Source: Candidatus Krumholzibacteriia bacterium
Lineage (GTDB): Bacteria; Krumholzibacteriota; Krumholzibacteriia; Krumholzibacteriales; Krumholzibacteriaceae
DNA: 64,000 nucleotides
NCBI GenBank assembly: GCA_963836185.1
Contig: CAWIIQ010000002.1
Span: 192,001 to 256,000, forward strand
Direction: 5' to 3'
Shown: one piece after another, positions 28,496 through 38,702 of the stretch
How the letters are laid out: each line of letters opens with the position of its first letter
Numbering within the stretch: position 1 is the first letter of the stretch
Position numbers and translations under genes: made by a program
Notes under the pieces: generated by a model
Seen by the model: only the letters and a program-made list of their open reading frames with translations
What the model was told of the DNA's origin: nothing
Database searches by the model: none

Positions 28496-30145
28496 CTATT
28501 TCTTCTTCTTGTTCAGGCCGTACTGCTTGATCTTATTATGCAGATGCTGCCTCGTCACGTCGAGCAGTTCCGCGGCCTTCGTGATCTTTCCGCCCGTTTC
28601 TTCCAGGGCCTCGATGATGATCTGTTTCTCGACTATTCGTATCTTCTCTTTGAGAGTACCTCCGGCATCTATCGTTCCCAGGACACCGTCGCTGCGGCCG
28701 AGCTGCGGGAAGTGGCTGGCCGCGAGGACCGTCGAGTCTCCACACAGGGCGAGCGCCCGCTCTATGGTGTTCTCCAGCTCCCTGACATTGCCTGGCCAGG
28801 AGCTGGACAATATCATCTTCATCGCGCTTGATTCGATCTCCATCTCACCCTTGTCCATCTTGGCGGCATATTTCTCGAGGAAATGCAGGGTCAGGGGCAG
28901 GATGTCCTCCTGCCTCTCGTTCAGGGGAGGGATGCCGACCGGTACCACGTTCAGCCTGTAGAAGAGGTCCTGGCGGAATCTGCCGGCCGTTATGTCCTCG
29001 GAAAGGTCGCGGTTTGTAGCGGCTATGACCCGGACGTCCACATTACGCACGGTGTTTTCCCCGACTCTTCTTATCTCGCCTTCCTGGAGCGCCCGCAGAA
29101 GCTTCACCTGCAGGGGCAGCGGCATGTCCCCGATCTCGTCGAGGAACAGTGTGCCTCCGCTCGCGGTCTCGAAGAGGCCGGGCTTGTCGCTCACCGCGCC
29201 TGTGAAAGAGCCCTTCTTGTGGCCGAAGAGCTCGCTCTCCAGGAGCTCCGGCGCCATCGCACCGCAGTTGATCGTTACAAGCTGGTTCGTCTTGCGGGGC
29301 CCATTGAAATGTATCGCCTTAGCGATCAGTTCCTTACCTGTTCCCGTGGCTCCAGTGATCAGAACGGTCGTGTCGAACGGCGAGATCTTCCTTATCGTGC
29401 TGAAGATCTCCATCATCGGCTTACTCTTGCCGATGATGCCGGAGAATTCGTACTTCTCGGATAGTACGGCCCTGAGCTCGAGATTTTCCCTCGCGAGGTT
29501 CTCCTTCGACATAATCAATTCGCCGTGGAGCCGGGCGTTCTCGATTGCGATCGCCGCCTGCACGGCAAAGGCGGAGAATATCGGCATGTCTTCCTGCTCT
29601 ATCTCTATGCTGAGCCTGCTGGCATCGGTGTAGATTACACCGATGACTGAATCGTCACGCATGAGGGGGAGGCAGATCGCCGTTTTCAGCTGCAGGTCTA
29701 GGACACTTTCCTGGTCCTTGTATCTGCCGTTTTTATCGATATCGGAGATGAAGAGGGGTTTGCCTTTATCGGCGGCCTCTCCGATGATCGTATGGCTCAC
29801 CTCGAAATCGCTCTCTCCGAGGTTCTGCTGCCTGCTGTCCCTGGCGATCCTGAACTCGAGCTCGCCGGTCTTGTTGCTGAGCATGAGGAATCCACGGTCC
29901 ATCTCGGCGATCTTAATCGTTGAATCGACAATATGCGACAGGAGCTCGTTGAGATTGAGTGTCGAGTTCATCGCCTTGGTGATCTCGGTCAACATCTCGA
30001 GTTTGCGCACCCGGTGCTGGCTGTTAGCTAGCTGACCGGAAAGGTCCTTGCTCTGACGGACAGCTTCTGATCCCTCGAGCTTCTCGAGATCACTTTCCAC
30101 GTCCGCAAAAAAATCTTCAGGTGCATCTTTCTTTTTTGTGCTCAT
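28496..30145 (-). CDS. GAF-domain sigma54-dependent activator
   Basis: GAF (ICLPL...GVIYTD...QAAIAIENARL), GATGTGKE, GSFTGA, WPGNVRELEN, HTH. Confidence 0.93.
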   Translation of the reverse strand: MSTKKKDAPEDFFADVESDLEKLEGSEAVRQSKDLSGQLANSQHRVRKLEMLTEITKAMNSTLNLNELLSHIVDSTIKIAEMDRGFLMLSNKTGELEFRIARDSRQQNLGESDFEVSHTIIGEAADKGKPLFISDIDKNGRYKDQESVLDLQLKTAICLPLMRDDSVIGVIYTDASRLSIEIEQEDMPIFSAFAVQAAIAIENARLHGELIMSKENLARENLELRAVLSEKYEFSGIIGKSKPMMEIFSTIRKISPFDTTVLITGATGTGKELIAKAIHFNGPRKTNQLVTINCGAMAPELLESELFGHKKGSFTGAVSDKPGLFETASGGTLFLDEIGDMPLPLQVKLLRALQEGEIRRVGENTVRNVDVRVIAATNRDLSEDITAGRFRQDLFYRLNVVPVGIPPLNERQEDILPLTLHFLEKYAAKMDKGEMEIESSAMKMILSSSWPGNVRELENTIERALALCGDSTVLAASHFPQLGRSDGVLGTIDAGGTLKEKIRIVEKQIIIEALEETGGKITKAAELLDVTRQHLHNKIKQYGLNKKKK

Positions 30146-30576: not shown

Positions 30577-30606
30577 TTGACCTGGCTATCACGGATATGG
30601 TAGAAT
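30577..30606 (+). promoter_or_regulatory. Putative sigma70 promoter of the small secreted protein/TPR-bEBP operon
   Basis: TTGACC-18-TAGAAT with TG extension. Confidence 0.5.
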
Positions 30607-30705
30607 TGTATAACAAGAAAGCGATGCTTCAGGCGGTTTGATACAGGGTAGTTCGCTCAGGTAATTGAAATCCGGTCGCGATTGTGTGCGACAGGAGCGA
30701 TGCTA

Positions 30706-31071
30706 ATGAGAATCTGTATCAGTCGCCTCTTTTCTTATTCTGTCCTGGCTCTGATTGTCGCCATTTTTCTGCTTTCGCTCTCCAGTGCGGCATATGCCAG
30801 GTCTCCCAGAACAGGAATCTATTCGATCTTCGATGATATCGTCGAGGCTGACCCAGGCGAAGATCCGCATCTGAAGGTCGACCCTGTGGTGGAATACGGG
30901 ATTCCCCTGTATCTGCCTGAAGGGACATCCTTATCTATGACAGATCGTGTGGACAAGGAGATTACAGGGGGACATAAGGCCACTGGTTACAAGGCAGGGA
31001 CGGGAAGATCCCGCGTGAAAACTAAATTGTTGAATACGCTGCAGATCCTGTTCGGACCATTATTCAGATAG
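30706..31071 (+). CDS. Small secreted protein, candidate signalling pro-peptide
   Basis: AGGAG RBS 8 nt before ATG 30706; signal peptide ending AYA; acidic EADPGEDPH core; basic amphipathic C-terminus; 19 bp before the TPR-bEBP. Confidence 0.7.
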   Translation: MRICISRLFSYSVLALIVAIFLLSLSSAAYARSPRTGIYSIFDDIVEADPGEDPHLKVDPVVEYGIPLYLPEGTSLSMTDRVDKEITGGHKATGYKAGTGRSRVKTKLLNTLQILFGPLFR

Positions 31072-31090: not shown

Positions 31091-33547
31091 ATGCGTAAAC
31101 GACACGAGTCCGTGGAAAGGTATATATCCCATGCGCAGGGCCACCAGGCCACCGGTGACTACCGGAGTGCGCTCAAATCGGCGAGAGACGCGTTGACCGC
31201 TATCGAGGGGCAACCAGTCTCGTTCGAGATGGAGTCGCGCGTCCTGCTGCTGGCGGCGAGGAACGCGTACTATCTCAGCGGATTCGATGAATGTACGATC
31301 TACCTCGATATGCTCAGCGAACTCATACGATCCGTCAGTGTCGATGCCAGCTGCGAGCGTTATGAAGCGTCTGTGATCAGGGCGAACATTTTCAGGCGGC
31401 AGGGGGAATACCGTGCCGCGCTCGATGTGTTAAGCGACATCGACGGATCGGTCGAAAGCTGCCTGGCAGGGGCTCTGACGGGAGAGAAGTATCTTATCGA
31501 AGGTGCGTGTCACTACTTTCTGAAGGATACTCACCGCGCGAAGGAAATACTGGAAACCGCCCTCGGACTTACTGCCGGCGTATCGAGCTGGAAACTGAGG
31601 GCCAGGGTCCTGACGATGATGGGGCTTGTCCTCAGGCGCCTCGGATTCATGAGGAAAGCCGCTGACGACCTGCGCAGGGCCGCTGCCGCATGTTCAAAGA
31701 ACAATGACGAATATGGTCTTGCCGCCGCGCTCCTCAATCTCGGGATAACGCAATACCACGTCGGCGACATCGAGGCTGCAGAAAGATCCTTTATAAAGGC
31801 CTCTGCGCTCTTTGAACGCATCAACTGGCATATCGGAAGATGCAGATGCCTCATCGCCCTCGGAAACACAGCCAGGATGAGGGAAGCGCTCGATGAAGCG
31901 CTGGAACTCTACTCGGACGCATCCAGGCTCGCGAAGGAGCAGACATACCAGCGTGAGCTGGCGCAGTCCCTCTCGGGTATCGCTTCGCTCCACACAAGCA
32001 GGAAAGACTTCACTCTCGCGAGAAACTGTCTGGTAAAGGCGCGTATGATCGCATCGGAGATCGCTCCTGATGGGGACCTCGCCGCTGAGGTAACGCGGAA
32101 GATCGGTGAACTGGAGATAGTCGAGGGCAATATTCAAAAAGCGATGTACCGTCTTGAGGAGGCAGAGGGGTTAGCGAAGGGGCAGGATGCGCCGCTGGAA
32201 CTGGGGCTTGTCTACCGGTCTATGGGAAAGGCCGAGACCGGCCGGGGAAATCTCGACACGGGAAAGATCCTTTTTAAGCGCTCGAAGGACCTGATAAGGA
32301 AATCGGGAAGTACCTATGAGCTGGCCAGGACATGTCTCAAATATGCCGAGACCCTGATCTCGTCAAATGGAGCGGGACTGTCGCACGGTATTCCAGGAAA
32401 GAAATACACAGATGAACCATGGAGCCTTCTCTGGGAAGCGCGGCACCTGTTCGCCGGGATGCACGCTCAGCACATGGTCGATCGTATCGATTGTCTGCTC
32501 GGCAGGGAAGAGCGAGGCAGTACCACACATCCCCGGATCGATGAAACCGCCGTTGCCGGCTCCGGTATGATCGAGGTCGGATTTTCGCTCGATTACAAGG
32601 TCTGTGACGGCCTTGTAGCAGTTTCGCCGGTCATGCAGGACGTTTGGGACAGGATCCAGTTTGCGGCCTCCTACAGAGGCACTGTTCTCGTGACTGGAGA
32701 GACAGGCACAGGGAAAGAGCTTGTCGCCAGGCTGATCCACAATGCCAGTGACAGGGCCCAGGGTCCGTTTGTCGCGGTCAATTGCGCCGCGATACCTGAC
32801 CATCTTTTCGAGAGTGAATTCTTTGGTCACAGGAAAGGGTCGTTTACCGGAGCAGTGATCGACCGTCGGGGCTTCTTCGAGGAGGCCAGCGGAGGAACGC
32901 TTTTCCTCGATGAAGTAGGAGAGCTTTCCACACTGCACCAGGCCAAGCTTCTCAGGGTGCTGCAGGAGGGGAAGATCAGGCGGCTGGGAGAGAACATCGA
33001 ACACGAGGTCGATATAAAGCTCGTATCTGCCACGAACCAGGATCTCGGGAGTAAACTCGATGACTCATCGCTGAGAGAGGATTTCTTCTTCAGGATCAAC
33101 GCCGAAAGGATACATATCCCGCCATTGAGGGATCGCAGGGAGGATATAATCCCGTTGATAAGCTGGCGGCTCTGTGGAAATGGAAATGGCAATAACGGCA
33201 GGACGGTGCAGGTCGACCGTGATGTCGTCTCTCTCTTTCAGAAATATCACTGGCCCGGTAACGTCAGGGAGTTGATCTCGATCGCTGACAGGCTGAGCTG
33301 CTTTGCCAATGATTCTCCTATTACGATCGACATGCTGCCTGACAGGATGACGGGAGATTCAACGGTTCTGCCCGAATGGAATCTCCGCCAGTCCGGTGCC
33401 TGCGATCGTCAAAGGCTTGAGAGCGCGATGAGTATATGCAAGGGCAACAAGAGCGCAGCCGCACGCTGGCTCGGGATATCAAGAGGCAAGCTGTACAAGG
33501 AGCTTAAAAAGACAGGCCTGTACAGATTCTACCGCACCGCAACGTGA
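31091..33547 (+). CDS. TPR-repeat sigma54-dependent activator
   Basis: ~460 aa of helical TPR-like repeats (AALLNLGITQY, CLIALGNTA), then GETGTGKE, GSFTGA, WPGNVREL and HTH GNKSAAARWLGISR. Confidence 0.9.
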   Translation: MRKRHESVERYISHAQGHQATGDYRSALKSARDALTAIEGQPVSFEMESRVLLLAARNAYYLSGFDECTIYLDMLSELIRSVSVDASCERYEASVIRANIFRRQGEYRAALDVLSDIDGSVESCLAGALTGEKYLIEGACHYFLKDTHRAKEILETALGLTAGVSSWKLRARVLTMMGLVLRRLGFMRKAADDLRRAAAACSKNNDEYGLAAALLNLGITQYHVGDIEAAERSFIKASALFERINWHIGRCRCLIALGNTARMREALDEALELYSDASRLAKEQTYQRELAQSLSGIASLHTSRKDFTLARNCLVKARMIASEIAPDGDLAAEVTRKIGELEIVEGNIQKAMYRLEEAEGLAKGQDAPLELGLVYRSMGKAETGRGNLDTGKILFKRSKDLIRKSGSTYELARTCLKYAETLISSNGAGLSHGIPGKKYTDEPWSLLWEARHLFAGMHAQHMVDRIDCLLGREERGSTTHPRIDETAVAGSGMIEVGFSLDYKVCDGLVAVSPVMQDVWDRIQFAASYRGTVLVTGETGTGKELVARLIHNASDRAQGPFVAVNCAAIPDHLFESEFFGHRKGSFTGAVIDRRGFFEEASGGTLFLDEVGELSTLHQAKLLRVLQEGKIRRLGENIEHEVDIKLVSATNQDLGSKLDDSSLREDFFFRINAERIHIPPLRDRREDIIPLISWRLCGNGNGNNGRTVQVDRDVVSLFQKYHWPGNVRELISIADRLSCFANDSPITIDMLPDRMTGDSTVLPEWNLRQSGACDRQRLESAMSICKGNKSAAARWLGISRGKLYKELKKTGLYRFYRTAT

Positions 33548-33601: not shown

Positions 33602-33709
33602 TGTTCATGTTGTTCATGTCGTGAACAGTCTTGTCTTCCCCTGCAACACTCAATCCCGCAACAGGTTGTCCCCCGTCATGTCCGTTTCCCGGAAACAGCA
33701 TGAACAACA
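33602..33709. promoter_or_regulatory. Candidate upstream activator sequence
   Basis: Palindrome TGTTCA-N5-TGAACA (33611-33627) with extra half-sites at 33602 and ~33701. Confidence 0.5.
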
Positions 33710-33837: not shown

Positions 33838-33852
33838 TGGCACGAATGGTGA
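33838..33852 (+). promoter_or_regulatory. Sigma54-like promoter (variant -12)
   Basis: TGGCACG-AATGG-TGA: perfect -24 element, GA instead of GC at -12. Confidence 0.5.
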
Positions 33853-33914
33853 TATTGGTATGTGTATCAAACCGCGTCACGGCGACGCTTTCTGAAAGGC
33901 CGGACCAAATTGGT

Positions 33915-34086
33915 AAGGTGTTTCGAATAAGAACCATCCGCTTTCTACGGTGCCGCTCTGAGTCCCCCCATCGCGCAACCATACCGTAGATAAGGTGGTT
34001 CTTATTTTTTTCTTCTACAGTTGCGCGATTCGAGGAGGCGGTTCCATTGGATCGGTGAGCACGGAAACGGGGGGACGAATCACCTT
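33915..34086 (+). ncRNA. Highly structured, possibly pseudoknotted leader RNA
   Basis: Five complementary pairs: 33915-25/34076-86, 33926-38/33994-34006, 33944-51/33983-90, 33962-69/34069-76, 33970-79/34020-29. Confidence 0.6.
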
Positions 34087-34101
34087 TTACTGGAGGATAA
34101 C

Positions 34102-34785
34102 ATGATATCGAAAGGTTTCTTCTTTCTGTTTCTGTCGCTCATCCTGATCTCAGTCGTTTCGTGCGAGCAGTCGCTCGAACCGTCCGGATCCGATGATGTT
34201 GAGATGTCCCTGGAGGACAGGCTGGAAGTCAGTTACGACGAAACTCAGACCGAAGATGAAATCGCCTCGTTCAGGATCACACCCAGTTGCTCGATATTCG
34301 GTAGGCTGCTGGAGGATAAGGGCTATCATATCCAGCCCGAAGACGCTGCTCACTACAGGGCAGTCGATCCAGCCACAGGAAAGACCGGGCATATGACGAT
34401 GATACCGTGTTCCGTTCCTGGCGATGAATCAAGGATCGCCATGATCAAATACTTCCGCGGTGAGGATGGATATGCTGTCACTGCAGCAGAGTATTTTGAG
34501 GCTGAGGATTTCGAGATAGTCCATCCGCTCGATGAAAGTGCAGGAATATTGCTGCTTGGTGATGACTCCGATCTTGATCTCAAACTCGACCTGCTCGAAC
34601 GGAGTGAGCGTTCCAAGCGTTACTGGCAGTGTGTCGCGACCAAGTTCATGGCCGGGTGTGCCGGGTGCGCTACCGTCTGCTACATCACGGGGCCTGCATG
34701 GGGTGCGTGTACAGCCAAATGCTGCGCCGGTTCCGCTGTCGTAGCTATGGTTGCCTGTGCGGCCACTGTATACCTGGGGTGGTGA
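34102..34785 (+). CDS. Lipoprotein with C-terminal 8-Cys hydrophobic bacteriocin-like (halocin C8-like) domain
   Basis: GGAGG RBS before ATG 34102; lipobox VVSC; acidic pro-region; SKR followed by YWQC...GCAGCATVC...CTAKCC...ACAATVYLGW. Confidence 0.65.
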   Translation: MISKGFFFLFLSLILISVVSCEQSLEPSGSDDVEMSLEDRLEVSYDETQTEDEIASFRITPSCSIFGRLLEDKGYHIQPEDAAHYRAVDPATGKTGHMTMIPCSVPGDESRIAMIKYFRGEDGYAVTAAEYFEAEDFEIVHPLDESAGILLLGDDSDLDLKLDLLERSERSKRYWQCVATKFMAGCAGCATVCYITGPAWGACTAKCCAGSAVVAMVACAATVYLGW

Positions 34786-34788
34786 GTG

Positions 34789-35121
34789 ATGAAATCATCA
34801 AAACGGATCGTCTATTGTTACCTGTTCTGTTTTCTCCTGATAGTAACGGTCGATCTGCTGAGTTCCGGCGATATGTCCGGTGAAAGGATGTACCTTGTAC
34901 TCATGCCGCTTCTGGCTCTATCGCTCTTTCTGTTCAGCGACTTTACGCCAGAGGGGATCAAAAGGAGGATCAAAGGGTATCGCTGGTCGATAATGGTCCT
35001 GCTGATCGGTATCACGACGAGTCTATTTATAGACAAGACGTTGTCCGCTGGAGTGGTGATACTTGTGAGTTCGTTCACGGCACCGTTTCTACGTATAAGG
35101 AAGTATGCCGATCAGGATTAG
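34789..35121 (+). CDS. Small 4-TM membrane protein, candidate immunity protein
   Basis: ~110 aa with four hydrophobic segments; starts 3 nt after the preceding stop. Confidence 0.6.
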   Translation: MKSSKRIVYCYLFCFLLIVTVDLLSSGDMSGERMYLVLMPLLALSLFLFSDFTPEGIKRRIKGYRWSIMVLLIGITTSLFIDKTLSAGVVILVSSFTAPFLRIRKYADQD

Positions 35122-38100
35122 GACTTGAGGCTTTTTACAAAGTCAAAGACCTGCGTTCTCAGCGGCACCTGGAGGTAGGAAGATATCTGTTCAGAATTGT
35201 CGAAAGCCTCGGTTATCTCCTTGAGGGTATTGATAGATTCCCTGCTGTATTTGACCGAGTTGGAGATATCGCCGGCCTGCTTGTAAAGCCGCGCAAGCTC
35301 AAACTGGATCTGCCATGTCCACTCCCTGGTCCCGAATTCTCTGGAGACATCGATAGCCTCCAGCATCGGGGCCAGGGATTTCGAATTATCGTGAACCTCA
35401 CTCAAAGCGATGACGTAACTGTACAGTGGCTTGAGATACCCGCAATTGATCTCCCTGAATATCTTCGCCGCCTGCCTGGCGTAATCACGAGCTATCTCAT
35501 GGTCCCCCATGTGTCGATGTGTGAGGGACAGCTTTAGTAATGCTTCGAGCAAGTCGTCCTTGGCGTTGGCTCCTTTGAAAATGTCGGAAGAAATAAGGGC
35601 ATGATTTATAGCAGTCTTGAGTTCAAGATTGTAGTAGGCTGAATCGGCATGTCTGAGCTCCAAATGTCCCAAGCCAATCTTATTGTTGTATTTATGAATT
35701 GATTCTTTTGATGTTTCTGTGAATTCCTTGTATTTGTCATGATATAGACTCCCCATAAGCAAGAATGCTCGAGCTCCTGTTGACGGAAATGTTGGGGAGA
35801 TCGCCGATACATTATACTTAGCTATATATTGAGATCCTTCAAATATTAAGGCTATTGCTTCAGAGAAATTAGCTATGGATATATGTCCCAAGGCCTTGTT
35901 TGCGAGAAAAACAATCAAGTGAGAATAGGCTTGGTATATCTTTGCCAAATGGCACGCCTTGTCCAGTATGCCAATCTGATCGTTGAATTTACCTTGAATA
36001 TAGTTCAGTCCGGCAAGCCCGCTCATGTGGTCAATGCGGCTAATTTCATCGCAACTGAGTTTGTCTAAAGCTATCATTTTCCCTAAGACTGTGTGGGCAG
36101 TATCATATTCTCCTGTGTAGAATGCTTTAACGTATTTCGAAAAGTAAATTCTATCTGTTGTTCTTAGATCACTTTCGTCAAGAAGGTCGTCTAACTCAAT
36201 ATCGATTGCATTGTACTTTTCTGCATCACCGGAGAATGTGTAATAATACATTGCGTTAGAAATCGCCCTGATATACTGAGCTGGAAGGATATCTTTGGCA
36301 GTTGTGGCAGCTGATTCAAGGAATGAGACATCGTTCAATACTATTCCTAGCGAAATGAGCGCTTCTGATTCGATGATTGCGTTTGAATTATTTCGAGCAA
36401 TATCTAGAGCCCTGTTATAAAAATTAACCGCCTTTTTCGAATTGCCTTTGTAGTATTGTTCGATATATCCCAATCTATTGTAGTACTCTGCTTTAGATTC
36501 TTCATTAGGGGCCATATTAAGCAGATAAGTGTAATTCTCAATGGAATCATCAACATATCCGAGAGTTAGTTCTAAAGGGGCAAGTTTAGAAAGAACAGTG
36601 CTTCTGATTTCTGGTAAATCTTGTGTATCAATCAAACTTTTAAGCGATAGTAATAGGTTAAAGGCTGAATAATATTCGTGCTGTGCCATGTGTTCATCAT
36701 GTGCCTTGATTGTATAACTATATGACTGTTCAATATCTCTGGCTTGAATGAAATGATTAGCTATCATTGGGAAGTTCTCTGGGTCGACCTGAATGGAATA
36801 GTATGCTAGATCTCTGTGAATCGAAGTGGATTGGTCATCTTGTGTGTTTCGAATGAGATAATTTTTAATAATTGGAGATAATAAACGACTTAGATTATTT
36901 TTCGATTCAATCAAGTCTGCTCGCTCAAGGCTATCAATTACAGGTGCAATATCAAAAGACATAAAAGTATTGAGTATATTTGTTTCTATAGGATTGTTAT
37001 GGGCGGAAAGTAACTGTAGGACATATAACTCATCTGTGCTTAATCCAGCAACTATTTGATCTGCCAGATCATCAAAGATCTCTGCGGATTGGTAGGTGCT
37101 TAATTTTTTGTGATTAACAAAATAGGCCCTGCCTGTCTTTGAAATAATGTCGTTTAGTATTAAGAAATTGTAGTAATCGATTATGTATAGTGGAATCCCA
37201 TCTGTAAGCAATAGAATGTCACTATATTCTTTTTTGCTGAATATGTCGGATTCAAACAGTGCAGTAGAAAGTGTTTTTAGCTCGGCATTGTTGAATCCTC
37301 GAATAGGCAAAGAGTAGGCGTTATTGGCAAGAGAGGCTAACTGTGTGTCAAGTGCGTCGCTGTGAGGGTAATCTGTGGCATGGGAAAGAATAACTTTTAC
37401 ATCAGCATTTAGATATTCGATTTCATTGATGAGATGAGTAAGGAATTTCAATGAATCAAGTCCACGACGCTCTATATTAGAAATTGTAATCAGAACTGGC
37501 TGATCTTTTGAAAGGGTATAAATATATTCGATGATGTTGCTATACAATACTCCGAGACTATCTAAATCTCTAGAGTCCTCGTATTTGTTAATGTTGGCTA
37601 CCAATTTGCCATGCTGAACAGAAAGCTTTTTGCGTGAAGTTAATGATAGGTTTGTGGCAATAGAATCGATAATGTTTTGAAGGGTTAGTCTTTCCGGTTG
37701 CGGCTCAATAAAGCTTATAACTTTGTATTTCAAGAGTTGAGCTTTGCTGATCGCTTTTATTAGCAGTGATTGTTTGCCCATCCCAATAGGGCCTTCTAAA
37801 ATAATCGTCCTCTCATGCAAGTCAGCACCCTCAATGAACTGTTCGATTGCTGAGTCAACGCCCTCGCGCAATACATGCTTAGTACTATTGAAATTGTATG
37901 GTATTGACGAGGGTGTGATGATTGAAGCCAGATTCTGTATTGCTTGCGAGGGTGTGGCTGGGCGAAGTGCGATGGATGGATTGGAAAGTCTGACAATATA
38001 CGAGGCAAGATTTCTTGGATGTTCAATCCCAGAATTCTGGAATAGTTGGCTCAGTGCTTCGTATGCAGAACTTAAATAATCATCCGTGAGGTTTGGTGCT

Positions 38101-38702
38101 AGTGGTGTTTCATATTTAAGCAGGCTTTCCATAAGTGTGTGCCCTAGTGCATAAAGGTCACTGCTGGGTGAATAATTTCTGGAAGAGATGATTTCTGGGG
38201 CTAAAAACCTGGGCGTTCCAAATAGTTTGTCGTTGTCTGTAAGTGCGATTGTTGATAATCCAAAATCAACTAAAACAGGACATAAATTACCATCGCCTGC
38301 TATAAGAACATTCTCTGGTTTTATATCTCCATGGATAATATTTTCCCTATTGAGGTAATGAAGTGCTTCGAGAATACCTGTGATTATAGCGGAAGTGGAT
38401 AACACGCGATCGGGAGATTCAAAGAAATCGTTTAGATTGGGGCCATTAATAAAATCCATGGTGAAGTATGAATGCCCCGATTCGCTCTGGCCAAAATCGT
38501 AAACACGAATCAGATTGGGATGATTTAGTGGCGTAAGAGTTGAGAATTCGTTTTCAATAGAAGCAGTTAGTGCTGGTTCAATATGATTCAGGATTTTTAG
38601 GGCAATATTCTTATTGGCCTGAGAGTCAAATGCCTTGAATACTGTCCCAATGCCACCAGATCCTATTAGAGGAGAAATTGCTGTATCTTGAAGGAAATCC
38701 AT
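35118..38702 (-). CDS. Ser/Thr protein kinase fused to degenerate STAND-like ATPase and TPR repeats
   Basis: GSGGIGTV, ALK, HGDIKPEN, DFG, GTPRFLAPE, SDLYALG; GPIGMGKQ; TDGIPLY GxP motif; C-terminal TPR-like helices. Confidence 0.88.
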   Translation of the reverse strand: MDFLQDTAISPLIGSGGIGTVFKAFDSQANKNIALKILNHIEPALTASIENEFSTLTPLNHPNLIRVYDFGQSESGHSYFTMDFINGPNLNDFFESPDRVLSTSAIITGILEALHYLNRENIIHGDIKPENVLIAGDGNLCPVLVDFGLSTIALTDNDKLFGTPRFLAPEIISSRNYSPSSDLYALGHTLMESLLKYETPLAPNLTDDYLSSAYEALSQLFQNSGIEHPRNLASYIVRLSNPSIALRPATPSQAIQNLASIITPSSIPYNFNSTKHVLREGVDSAIEQFIEGADLHERTIILEGPIGMGKQSLLIKAISKAQLLKYKVISFIEPQPERLTLQNIIDSIATNLSLTSRKKLSVQHGKLVANINKYEDSRDLDSLGVLYSNIIEYIYTLSKDQPVLITISNIERRGLDSLKFLTHLINEIEYLNADVKVILSHATDYPHSDALDTQLASLANNAYSLPIRGFNNAELKTLSTALFESDIFSKKEYSDILLLTDGIPLYIIDYYNFLILNDIISKTGRAYFVNHKKLSTYQSAEIFDDLADQIVAGLSTDELYVLQLLSAHNNPIETNILNTFMSFDIAPVIDSLERADLIESKNNLSRLLSPIIKNYLIRNTQDDQSTSIHRDLAYYSIQVDPENFPMIANHFIQARDIEQSYSYTIKAHDEHMAQHEYYSAFNLLLSLKSLIDTQDLPEIRSTVLSKLAPLELTLGYVDDSIENYTYLLNMAPNEESKAEYYNRLGYIEQYYKGNSKKAVNFYNRALDIARNNSNAIIESEALISLGIVLNDVSFLESAATTAKDILPAQYIRAISNAMYYYTFSGDAEKYNAIDIELDDLLDESDLRTTDRIYFSKYVKAFYTGEYDTAHTVLGKMIALDKLSCDEISRIDHMSGLAGLNYIQGKFNDQIGILDKACHLAKIYQAYSHLIVFLANKALGHISIANFSEAIALIFEGSQYIAKYNVSAISPTFPSTGARAFLLMGSLYHDKYKEFTETSKESIHKYNNKIGLGHLELRHADSAYYNLELKTAINHALISSDIFKGANAKDDLLEALLKLSLTHRHMGDHEIARDYARQAAKIFREINCGYLKPLYSYVIALSEVHDNSKSLAPMLEAIDVSREFGTREWTWQIQFELARLYKQAGDISNSVKYSRESINTLKEITEAFDNSEQISSYLQVPLRTQVFDFVKSLKS

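Follow-up and report, generated by a model that had tools for sequence, protein, structure and literature searches.

A predicted small RNA of Krumholzibacteriota with a sigma54-type promoter and a C-rich loop that may pair with the leaders of mobile DUF222-HNH genes

In the RRNPP pairs, such as Rap-Phr, NprR-NprX and AimR-AimP, a TPR-array regulator is encoded next to a small protein that is exported and carries a short invariant motif, and in IS10 (RNA-OUT) and IS200 (art200) an RNA that pairs near the ribosome-binding site restrains a gene of the mobile element. In the Qrr/LuxO system of Vibrionaceae, the gene of a sigma54 activator adjoins that of a sigma54-dependent base-pairing sRNA, the latter in opposite orientation to luxO, as described in the available part of PMC10162802. 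In Enterobacteriaceae, sigma54 promoters together with upstream activator sites for GlrR drive the sRNAs GlmY and GlmZ (available part of PMC3045617). The 6C sRNA of Actinobacteria binds G-rich 5' leaders near the ribosome-binding site through a six-C loop, apparently free of a chaperone, according to the available text of PMC6486639. On the side of the targets discussed below, REP13E12 is named as a repeat class in the accessible part of PMC10589994. The locus described here, from a Krumholzibacteriia genome (the source genome, G000), probably encodes a trans-acting small RNA whose C-rich loop pairs upstream of ribosome-binding sites and represses translation.

The window, that is, the whole stretch of 64,000 nt that was analysed, provides all positions given below, and features lie on its plus strand unless stated otherwise. 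A sequence-only reading had described 33915-34086 as a compact pseudoknotted RNA just before the ribosome-binding site of a bacteriocin-like gene, and its elements can be read off the DNA: an outer helix with a single T-T mismatch (arms 33915-25 and 34076-86), a long hairpin composed of the stems P2 (33926-38/33994-34006) and P3 (33944-51/33983-90), a run of seven T (34005-11), two loop pieces (33962-69 and 33970-79) complementary to 34069-76 and 34020-29, respectively, and, after the RNA, the GGAGG of a lipoprotein gene (34092-96). That the loop is meant to pair with both downstream segments was counted right, and so was the claim of a new structured RNA on the plus strand. All of the helices exist as claimed, but the outer helix and the pairing of the downstream G-run are never both complete, because each of them uses C34076. 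The double complement exceeds chance, since, when the 91 nt downstream were dinucleotide-shuffled 5000 times, the 10-nt and 8-nt complements never appeared together (the 10-nt complement alone appeared in 40 of 5000). In its folding energy, the 211-nt region does not stand out (z -1.08). The earlier statement that no known riboswitch is matched agrees with a cmscan-type comparison with Rfam, in which no family reached the gathering score anywhere in the 64,000 nt; at loose E-values only chance matches were obtained (E up to 10 locally, and up to 1 at four homologous loci). Additionally, the RNA is not a dispersed MITE-like repeat, a case that the same reading had named as refuting it, because it has one copy in the source genome; there is one locus per genome, and second matches are the opposite strand.

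What is kept across the order is smaller than the 170-nt cis-acting pseudoknot, switch or ribozyme that had been proposed, and consists of the promoter, the hairpin and the U-run. The predicted unit is best read as a stand-alone small RNA of about 145 nt, at roughly 33866-34011, its ends being placed by the promoter and the U-run. It would begin with two variable 5' hairpins (33874-33924; 33874-88 and 33894-924), which the shortest homologs lack, followed by a conserved core hairpin (33926-34006) with closing stem P2 and covarying inner stem P3, an exposed loop (33952-33982) with the near-invariant seed GUCCCCCCAUCGCGCAACC at 33962-33980, and, directly after the closing stem, the U-run (34005-34011) as the predicted 3' end. 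Among 35 homologs the predicted length ranges from 83 to 147 nt, with 83 nt in L052, and the conserved hairpin has about 80 nt and two stems, which leave a C6 loop exposed. When these 35 sequences are aligned without a covariance model, 97.7% of the stem cells are paired; the inner stem P3 has two-sided changes in five of its seven pairs, and 24 cells with two-sided changes were observed versus 8.9 in shuffles (0 of 500 reached the observed number). In RNA folds of all 35 homologs the C-run is predicted to be 0.80-0.99 unpaired, with one C-run loop per fold (35/35), and 5 to 9 of the ten bases past the stem are T at 35 of 35 loci; a simple terminator scan did not call the U-run at 34005-11. 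The sole contig from an RNA library, belonging to a relative and with a depth of 2.5, covers 33901-34095 and thus crosses the U-run, and it could be DNA.

Several other features also bear on whether this unit is a leader or a separate RNA. Different genes follow the RNA at different loci, and at least 7 of 35 have a convergent one; since promoter, hairpin, loop and tail are kept while the next gene is variable, the anatomy is that of a stand-alone sRNA and not of a 5' leader. The proposed switch between a terminator and a loop-paired form does not hold, as both complements are transcribed after the U-run, without competing with the hairpin; therefore there is no antitermination at 34005-11. 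Nor does the outer helix belong to the conserved unit, as its 5' arm falls in a separate 5' hairpin when the RNA is folded alone, and one metagenome copy (L375) lacks this arm, yet keeps the downstream leader, an assembly collapse being possible. A self-cleaving ribozyme was considered and is disfavoured, as the pseudoknot partners are absent beyond the genus and show no compensatory change within it. A riboswitch or attenuator was rejected, given the varying, often convergent next gene and the lack of an alternative helix upstream of the U-run.

In the genomes searched, the RNA is confined to one order. A DNA search matched 27 of 61 genomes, and beyond the genus the matches are limited to the hairpin region, while a covariance model of the hairpin found it in 25/34, 1/1 and 7/7 genomes of the order's three families; in other orders, the 108 genomes covered yielded a single match to the model, in G079, which falls within coding sequence and was discarded. 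When the cut-off of the model was tightened, 30 of 39 other genomes of the same order were matched, and none of 111 from elsewhere in the phylum. In GTDB, a scan by pattern returned 29 matches, 28 of them with the architecture of the RNA cassette: 13 belong to Krumholzibacteriota or a sub-rank, 15 are others with the same architecture, and one is a chance match. Metagenomes gave 22 pattern matches, with the cassette architecture in 21, and viral contigs gave none; the pattern matches L079 and L384 were set aside as chance.

The RNA is preceded by a conserved sigma54-type -24/-12 promoter of the variant TGGCAC-N5-GTGAT (33838-33853). A promoter of this type is present at every genome locus (35 of 35) and at every genuine metagenome locus (21 of 21), and, written as TGGCAY-N6-TG, it lies 33-94 nt upstream in 35/35. 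Its -12 element is TGA or TGT; the -12 element of sigma54 promoters is usually TGC. Further upstream, a candidate enhancer dyad without strand assignment, GTTCAT-N12-GTGAAC (33603-33626), is accompanied by a degenerate second copy (33682-33705), and 27 of 35 loci have enhancer-like half-sites whose distance from the promoter is about -236/-218 or -150/-141. The neighbouring gene (31091-33547) encodes a sigma54 enhancer-binding activator of 818 aa with a TPR array (Pfam TPR_12, TPR_MalT, Sigma54_activat and HTH_8), which is found near full-length upstream of the RNA at 24 of 32 loci. Ahead of it lies the gene of a small exported protein (30700-31071), a candidate signal pro-peptide with an invariant PGEDPH, a motif present at 25 of 32 loci (six contigs are too short and one copy is altered). 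The peptide-activator operon has a predicted sigma70-type promoter, TTGACC-18-TAGAAT (30577-30606), similar to those ahead of the orthologous operon leaders; its own leader (30607-30699) contains AGGCGG and CAGGG blocks that are kept across the order and are not explained by pairing with the RNA. The genome contains rpoN, so that the sequence features expected for sigma54 control of an sRNA are present, namely the -24/-12 promoter, candidate activator sites, a neighbouring enhancer-binding protein and rpoN; no match to Hfq was found in this genome, which is 92.5% complete. The same taxonomic order also has additional paralogous pairs in which a small exported protein accompanies a TPR activator (L017, L020, L263, L282 and L289-L292), with other exported-protein motifs, of the GEPG-, EPGG- and GGDAD-type.

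Downstream of the RNA, 34102-34785 encodes a lipoprotein of 227 aa with a Cys-rich hydrophobic C-terminal domain, a predicted target, and 34789-35121 encodes a membrane protein of 110 aa with no family above cut-off, possibly, judging from its position, an immunity partner. The description of the first gene as bacteriocin-like stands as a resemblance, an Atlas lead placing it in a cluster with Gpos_C8-like on 17% of members (score 0.80), but the halocin C8 domain profile is not matched, and no Pfam or NCBIfam match was found at E 0.1. Background on halocin C8 is taken from the available part of 10.64898/2026.07.27.741052. Convergent on the lipoprotein pair is a Ser/Thr kinase of 1194 aa with AAA-like and TPR regions (35118-38702, minus strand), and TPR proteins similar to it directly follow the RNA in several genomes.

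The leader of the lipoprotein gene holds both complements of the loop. The half-site W' (34020-34029) lies 5 nt before a first Shine-Dalgarno site, the GGAGG at 34034-38, which is followed by a predicted three-codon upstream ORF, TTG-GAT-CGG-TGA (34047-58; the whole element spans 34034-34058), and the half-site Z' (GGGGGGAC, 34069-34076) lies 35 nt before the lipoprotein start. As W' sits just before the first Shine-Dalgarno site, like the sites in the nuclease leaders described below, W' and Z' would be target sites, and the two downstream complements are best read, from their place in the sequence, as putative sites that belong to the lipoprotein leader. The comparison of homologs for covariation, which had been proposed as a check, supports the inner stem but not the outer helix: in six congeners the outer helix is 88.7% paired with zero compensatory changes, and W' (86.7%) and Z' (97.9%) show no compensatory change either. 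Fourteen orthologous lipoprotein leaders were examined, two of them near-duplicates of others, and 13 were called. The G-run lies 34-46 nt before the ATG in 13 of 13, a spacing also kept in the four that lie 348-469 nt from the RNA, and in 12 of 13 a Shine-Dalgarno site is followed after 8 nt by ATG, GTG or TTG and 3-4 codons. W' is absent from four distant orthologous leaders.

The main predicted targets are genes of a different kind. When the loop complement was searched in 51 genomes, G010 and G023 showed several copies of it besides the RNA itself, and these directly follow a TATAAT promoter at the start of a multicopy gene. The proteins encoded are of the DUF222-HNH type, with HNH above cut-off and DUF222 at 23.7 bits versus a cut-off of 24.4 (one of the proteins scanned), and the complement sits at the 5' end of the leader, just upstream of the Shine-Dalgarno site. 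Within the order, 28 of 52 genomes have this family, and G000 has seven copies. Among 80 loci examined, 13 were dropped as no promoter was called and 67 leaders were scored, 46 of them from genomes with a known RNA of their own and the other 21 with the common loop. For 32 of the 46 leaders, no more than 5 of 100 dinucleotide shuffles paired as well with the loop of the same genome as the real leader did (mean z -2.7); among the 14 that did not beat the shuffles are six of the seven G006 leaders and the sole leaders of G017 and of G038. With the common loop, the leaders of G010 and G023 pass in 10 of 10 cases and those of G012 in 0 of 4; the RNA and the peptide gene were both looked for in G012 and not found. 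The same two genes were not found in G010 (94% complete) and G009 (98%), which nevertheless carry complementary leaders, and the cassette of G023 runs off the contig end. Outside the order, 0 of 23 DUF222-HNH leaders reach p 0.05 (23 from 30 loci, the rest having no usable alignment), and 13 of these 23 carry a CTCCC anti-Shine-Dalgarno motif instead of the site. The carriers of CTCCC in other orders are L216, L217, L221, L223, L225, L226, L230, L233, L239, L242-L244 and L222.

In short leaders the predicted site ends about 3-12 nt before GGAGG, and in most of them it begins within a few bases of the predicted +1; in G041, G042, G045 and one leader of G043 it lies 40-60 nt further downstream and still adjoins the Shine-Dalgarno site. 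In a duplex ranking of the source genome, for which gene calls were rough and one whole genome was script-scanned, one HNH gene came 3rd of 3118 called genes; with another choice of the interval compared it came 7th and the lipoprotein gene 316th. This single-genome ranking was mostly noise before the comparative lead, and genome-wide k-mer counts gave no clear excess of the loop complement; other conserved targets of the RNA may exist. A conserved site at a gene junction in the same genus, the genes presumably being rnfB and rnfC by resemblance, coincides with stop and start codons and was left out of the count.

The leader site changes with the loop from lineage to lineage. In genomes with a variant loop, the genome's own loop outpairs the common loop in 14 of 18 leaders, and leaders of the common type prefer the common loop in 5 of 5 cases. 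In G037, an altered loop and its own leader form 17 consecutive pairs, with -39.2 kcal/mol versus -22.7 kcal/mol for the common loop; in G041, an insertion of 3 nt in the loop is matched in the leader (-41.5 versus -29.6), and the divergent loops of G040 and G043 fit their own leaders. The common loop is better than the own one in all three leaders of G018 and in the leader of G017, and the own type is strictly the best of ten loop types in only 7 of 21 leaders, close types splitting the score. Moreover, within the target sites, transitions that keep a G-U pair are found at 18 of 99 positions versus pair-breaking ones at 21 of 297, a comparison made on 33 distinct sites chosen by plain identity from 53, in which kin are not independent and a C-to-T bias of the sense strand may inflate the difference.

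The nuclease genes appear to move together with their sites. For two of the HNH copies of G000, congeners (G003, G004 and G001) have empty sites, with gaps of 89, 86 and 17 nt versus about 1.9-2.0 kb in G000. The promoter and leader are common to six similar copies in G000, and therefore the site travels with the element; these six copies (L141-L146) share about 190 nt upstream, with a TTGAC about 150 nt before TGTTATAAT. In genus g2 the seed and the RNA are kept and DUF222-HNH genes are absent (0/16 and 0/5); genes for ORF6N-domain proteins begin there with the same loop complement. Their leaders pass in 8 of 14 cases in g2 (one further leader was mis-windowed) and in 0 of 7 in other genera, four having been skipped; a promoter-plus-site pattern gave one match in five g2 genomes versus two control matches.

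The mechanism that we propose for this RNA would start with the adjacent activator, which is expected to bind the dyads and drive sigma54-dependent transcription. The exposed loop would then pair over 9-17 bases with target leaders upstream of GGAGG, Hfq probably not being needed, and ribosome loading would be blocked, as for the 6C sRNA. Repression is favoured as the sign of the effect because, in short leaders, about 3-12 nt separate the end of the site from GGAGG. Besides the nuclease genes, the RNA may also act on the lipoprotein gene next to it and, in one genus, on ORF6N genes. The least tested step is a speculative one, drawn by analogy with RRNPP systems, in which the exported peptide might be the signal of the activator; if the activator senses it, nuclease expression would be tied to cell density. 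The complete chain, from the PGEDPH peptide through the TPR-sigma54 activator and the C-loop RNA to the translation of DUF222-HNH, ORF6N and bacteriocin-like genes via co-evolving sites, with mobile elements that have swapped an anti-Shine-Dalgarno brake for a receiver of the host RNA, is put forward tentatively and at less than even confidence.

Other explanations have to be weighed against repression in trans. One is a cis-acting fold limited to the genus: in a transcript that has read through the U-run, W' and Z' would be paired with the loop, and formation of the outer helix would open a weak hairpin over the Shine-Dalgarno site of the lipoprotein gene, whose translation would then depend on read-through. 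This fold might exist beside a role in trans but not take its place. Because the lipoprotein gene has no evident promoter of its own in the genus, none being seen in the 90 nt ahead of it, such a genus-limited fold may exist, and it is in line with the 87-98% pairing of W', Z' and the outer helix in six congeners, with a U-rich linker of about 13-16 nt, with a lipoprotein leader that alone folds over GGAGG and, weakly, with the RNA-library contig that bridges the U-run. Nevertheless, compensatory changes are absent, the architecture is absent outside the genus, the G-run keeps its spacing to the ATG and not to the hairpin, L375 lacks the 5' arm, and the complements follow the U-run, leaving no antitermination, so that this fold seems unlikely. 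It is quite improbable that the shared motif is a DNA operator to which a protein repressor binds, both within the RNA gene and at the +1 of HNH and ORF6N promoters, without any RNA-RNA pairing. Operators often lie near +1, and most short-leader sites do begin within a few bases of the predicted +1, but the motif is not palindromic, moves 40-60 nt downstream together with the Shine-Dalgarno site in some leaders, tolerates a matched insertion of 3 nt and favours changes that keep G-U pairs, and its copy in the RNA gene is part of a loop that a covarying stem keeps open.

The sign of the effect could also be the reverse, the RNA pairing with the leaders but activating or stabilising them, so that the signal turns the nuclease and lipoprotein genes on. 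Some leaders indeed fold over the G-run or the Shine-Dalgarno site, and a duplex at the extreme 5' end might shield the mRNA; however, the short leaders have no anti-Shine-Dalgarno motif to open, blocking the G-run of one type-2 leader favours a GGAGG hairpin at nearly equal energy, and the same contact between a C-loop and a G-run represses in the case of the 6C sRNA (available part of PMC6486639). We therefore regard activation as improbable. Hardly credible, finally, is that the RNA feeds back on its own peptide-activator operon or serves as a protein-binding or guide RNA. The conserved blocks of the operon leader would suit feedback, but the loop scores a mean z of +0.25 against its own operon leader (1 of 17 at p<0.05), and the start of the activator gene came 2894th of 3118 in the ranking. 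Some relatives of HNH nucleases are RNA-guided, and weak matches to IscB and Cas9d were obtained (HNH domain only, 24 bits versus a cut-off of 175), but the complement lies inside the element's own leader, so that a guide would target the element itself.

Some related loci were noted along the way. A second sigma54-type unit of the source genome (L028:3044-3250, about G000:C3 195043-195250, plus strand) shares the promoter variant and has a C8 loop, with a hairpin and a U-run; it lies between genes labelled by eye as pyruvate kinase-like and citrate lyase-like, is unmatched by model R1, and its loop pairs with HNH leaders worse than, or about equally to, the main RNA. Another occurrence of the promoter variant (G000:C1 1737779, minus strand) precedes a gene that we take, from its N-terminus, to be DnaK-like. 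In the window, a divergent GAF-sigma54 activator gene (28496-30145, minus strand) has GGGGGG 11-16 nt before its ATG and is a possible further target, ranked only 429th of 3118; a gene resembling it is located 5' of the peptide gene in G023. In G048 (L286, G048:C8), a sigma54-type RNA lies behind a different TPR activator, and by eye a segment of it pairs over 10 of 11 bases with GGATGCGGG of the HNH leaders of that genome (L234, L240 and L245). The link between RNA and HNH leaders may thus be more general beyond the order, activator-adjacent RNAs of other orders having been inspected by eye only.

The targets of new bacterial RNAs in uncultured phyla are seldom pinned down from sequence alone, and here the co-change of seed and target spans three families. 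The DUF222-HNH (13E12-like) repeat family is poorly understood, and a host RNA wired to a signalling activator would show how mobile nucleases are restrained or timed, and would give the peptide/TPR/sigma54 cassettes a concrete output; if the complete chain is true, the activity of the mobile elements is tied to a density signal of the host. No published report of this RNA family, or of a chromosomal sRNA acting on DUF222-HNH leaders, was found in the literature searched, which was largely open-access.

Compared with the described systems, the cassette is like the RRNPP pairs in that a candidate exported pro-peptide gene adjoins the gene of a TPR regulator, and unlike them in that the output is an AAA+ sigma54 activator together with a small RNA, in a different phylum. 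The antisense RNAs of IS10 and IS200 are encoded by the element itself on the opposite strand, whereas the RNA described here is a single-copy chromosomal gene with its own activator. Its predicted nuclease targets resemble REP13E12/DUF222-HNH genes in their dispersed multicopy nature, with an N-terminal DUF222-like and a C-terminal HNH domain, and differ from them in a DUF222 score just below cut-off and in leaders that carry a predicted site for a host RNA. GlmY and GlmZ, which have a two-component input, the target glmS and a different structure, show no match to this RNA. As in Qrr/LuxO, going by the available part of PMC10162802, the gene of a sigma54 enhancer-binding activator lies beside a predicted sigma54-type base-pairing RNA; unlike Qrr as described there, the RNA has no sequence or Rfam match, and the activator is of the TPR-AAA-HTH type, without a receiver domain, and stands in tandem with the RNA. 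It also differs from Qrr in that Hfq was not found, only one copy exists and the predicted targets are mobile nuclease genes. The C6 loop facing a G-rich leader near the ribosome-binding site recalls the 6C sRNA, which, in the text available of PMC6486639, has two C-rich loops, unlike the one loop on one long hairpin found here; a second seed, AUCGCGCA, the sigma54-type promoter, the lack of an Rfam match and a different phylum separate the two as well. The control of this RNA is Qrr/GlmY-like and its seed is 6C-like, yet membership of each of these families fails.
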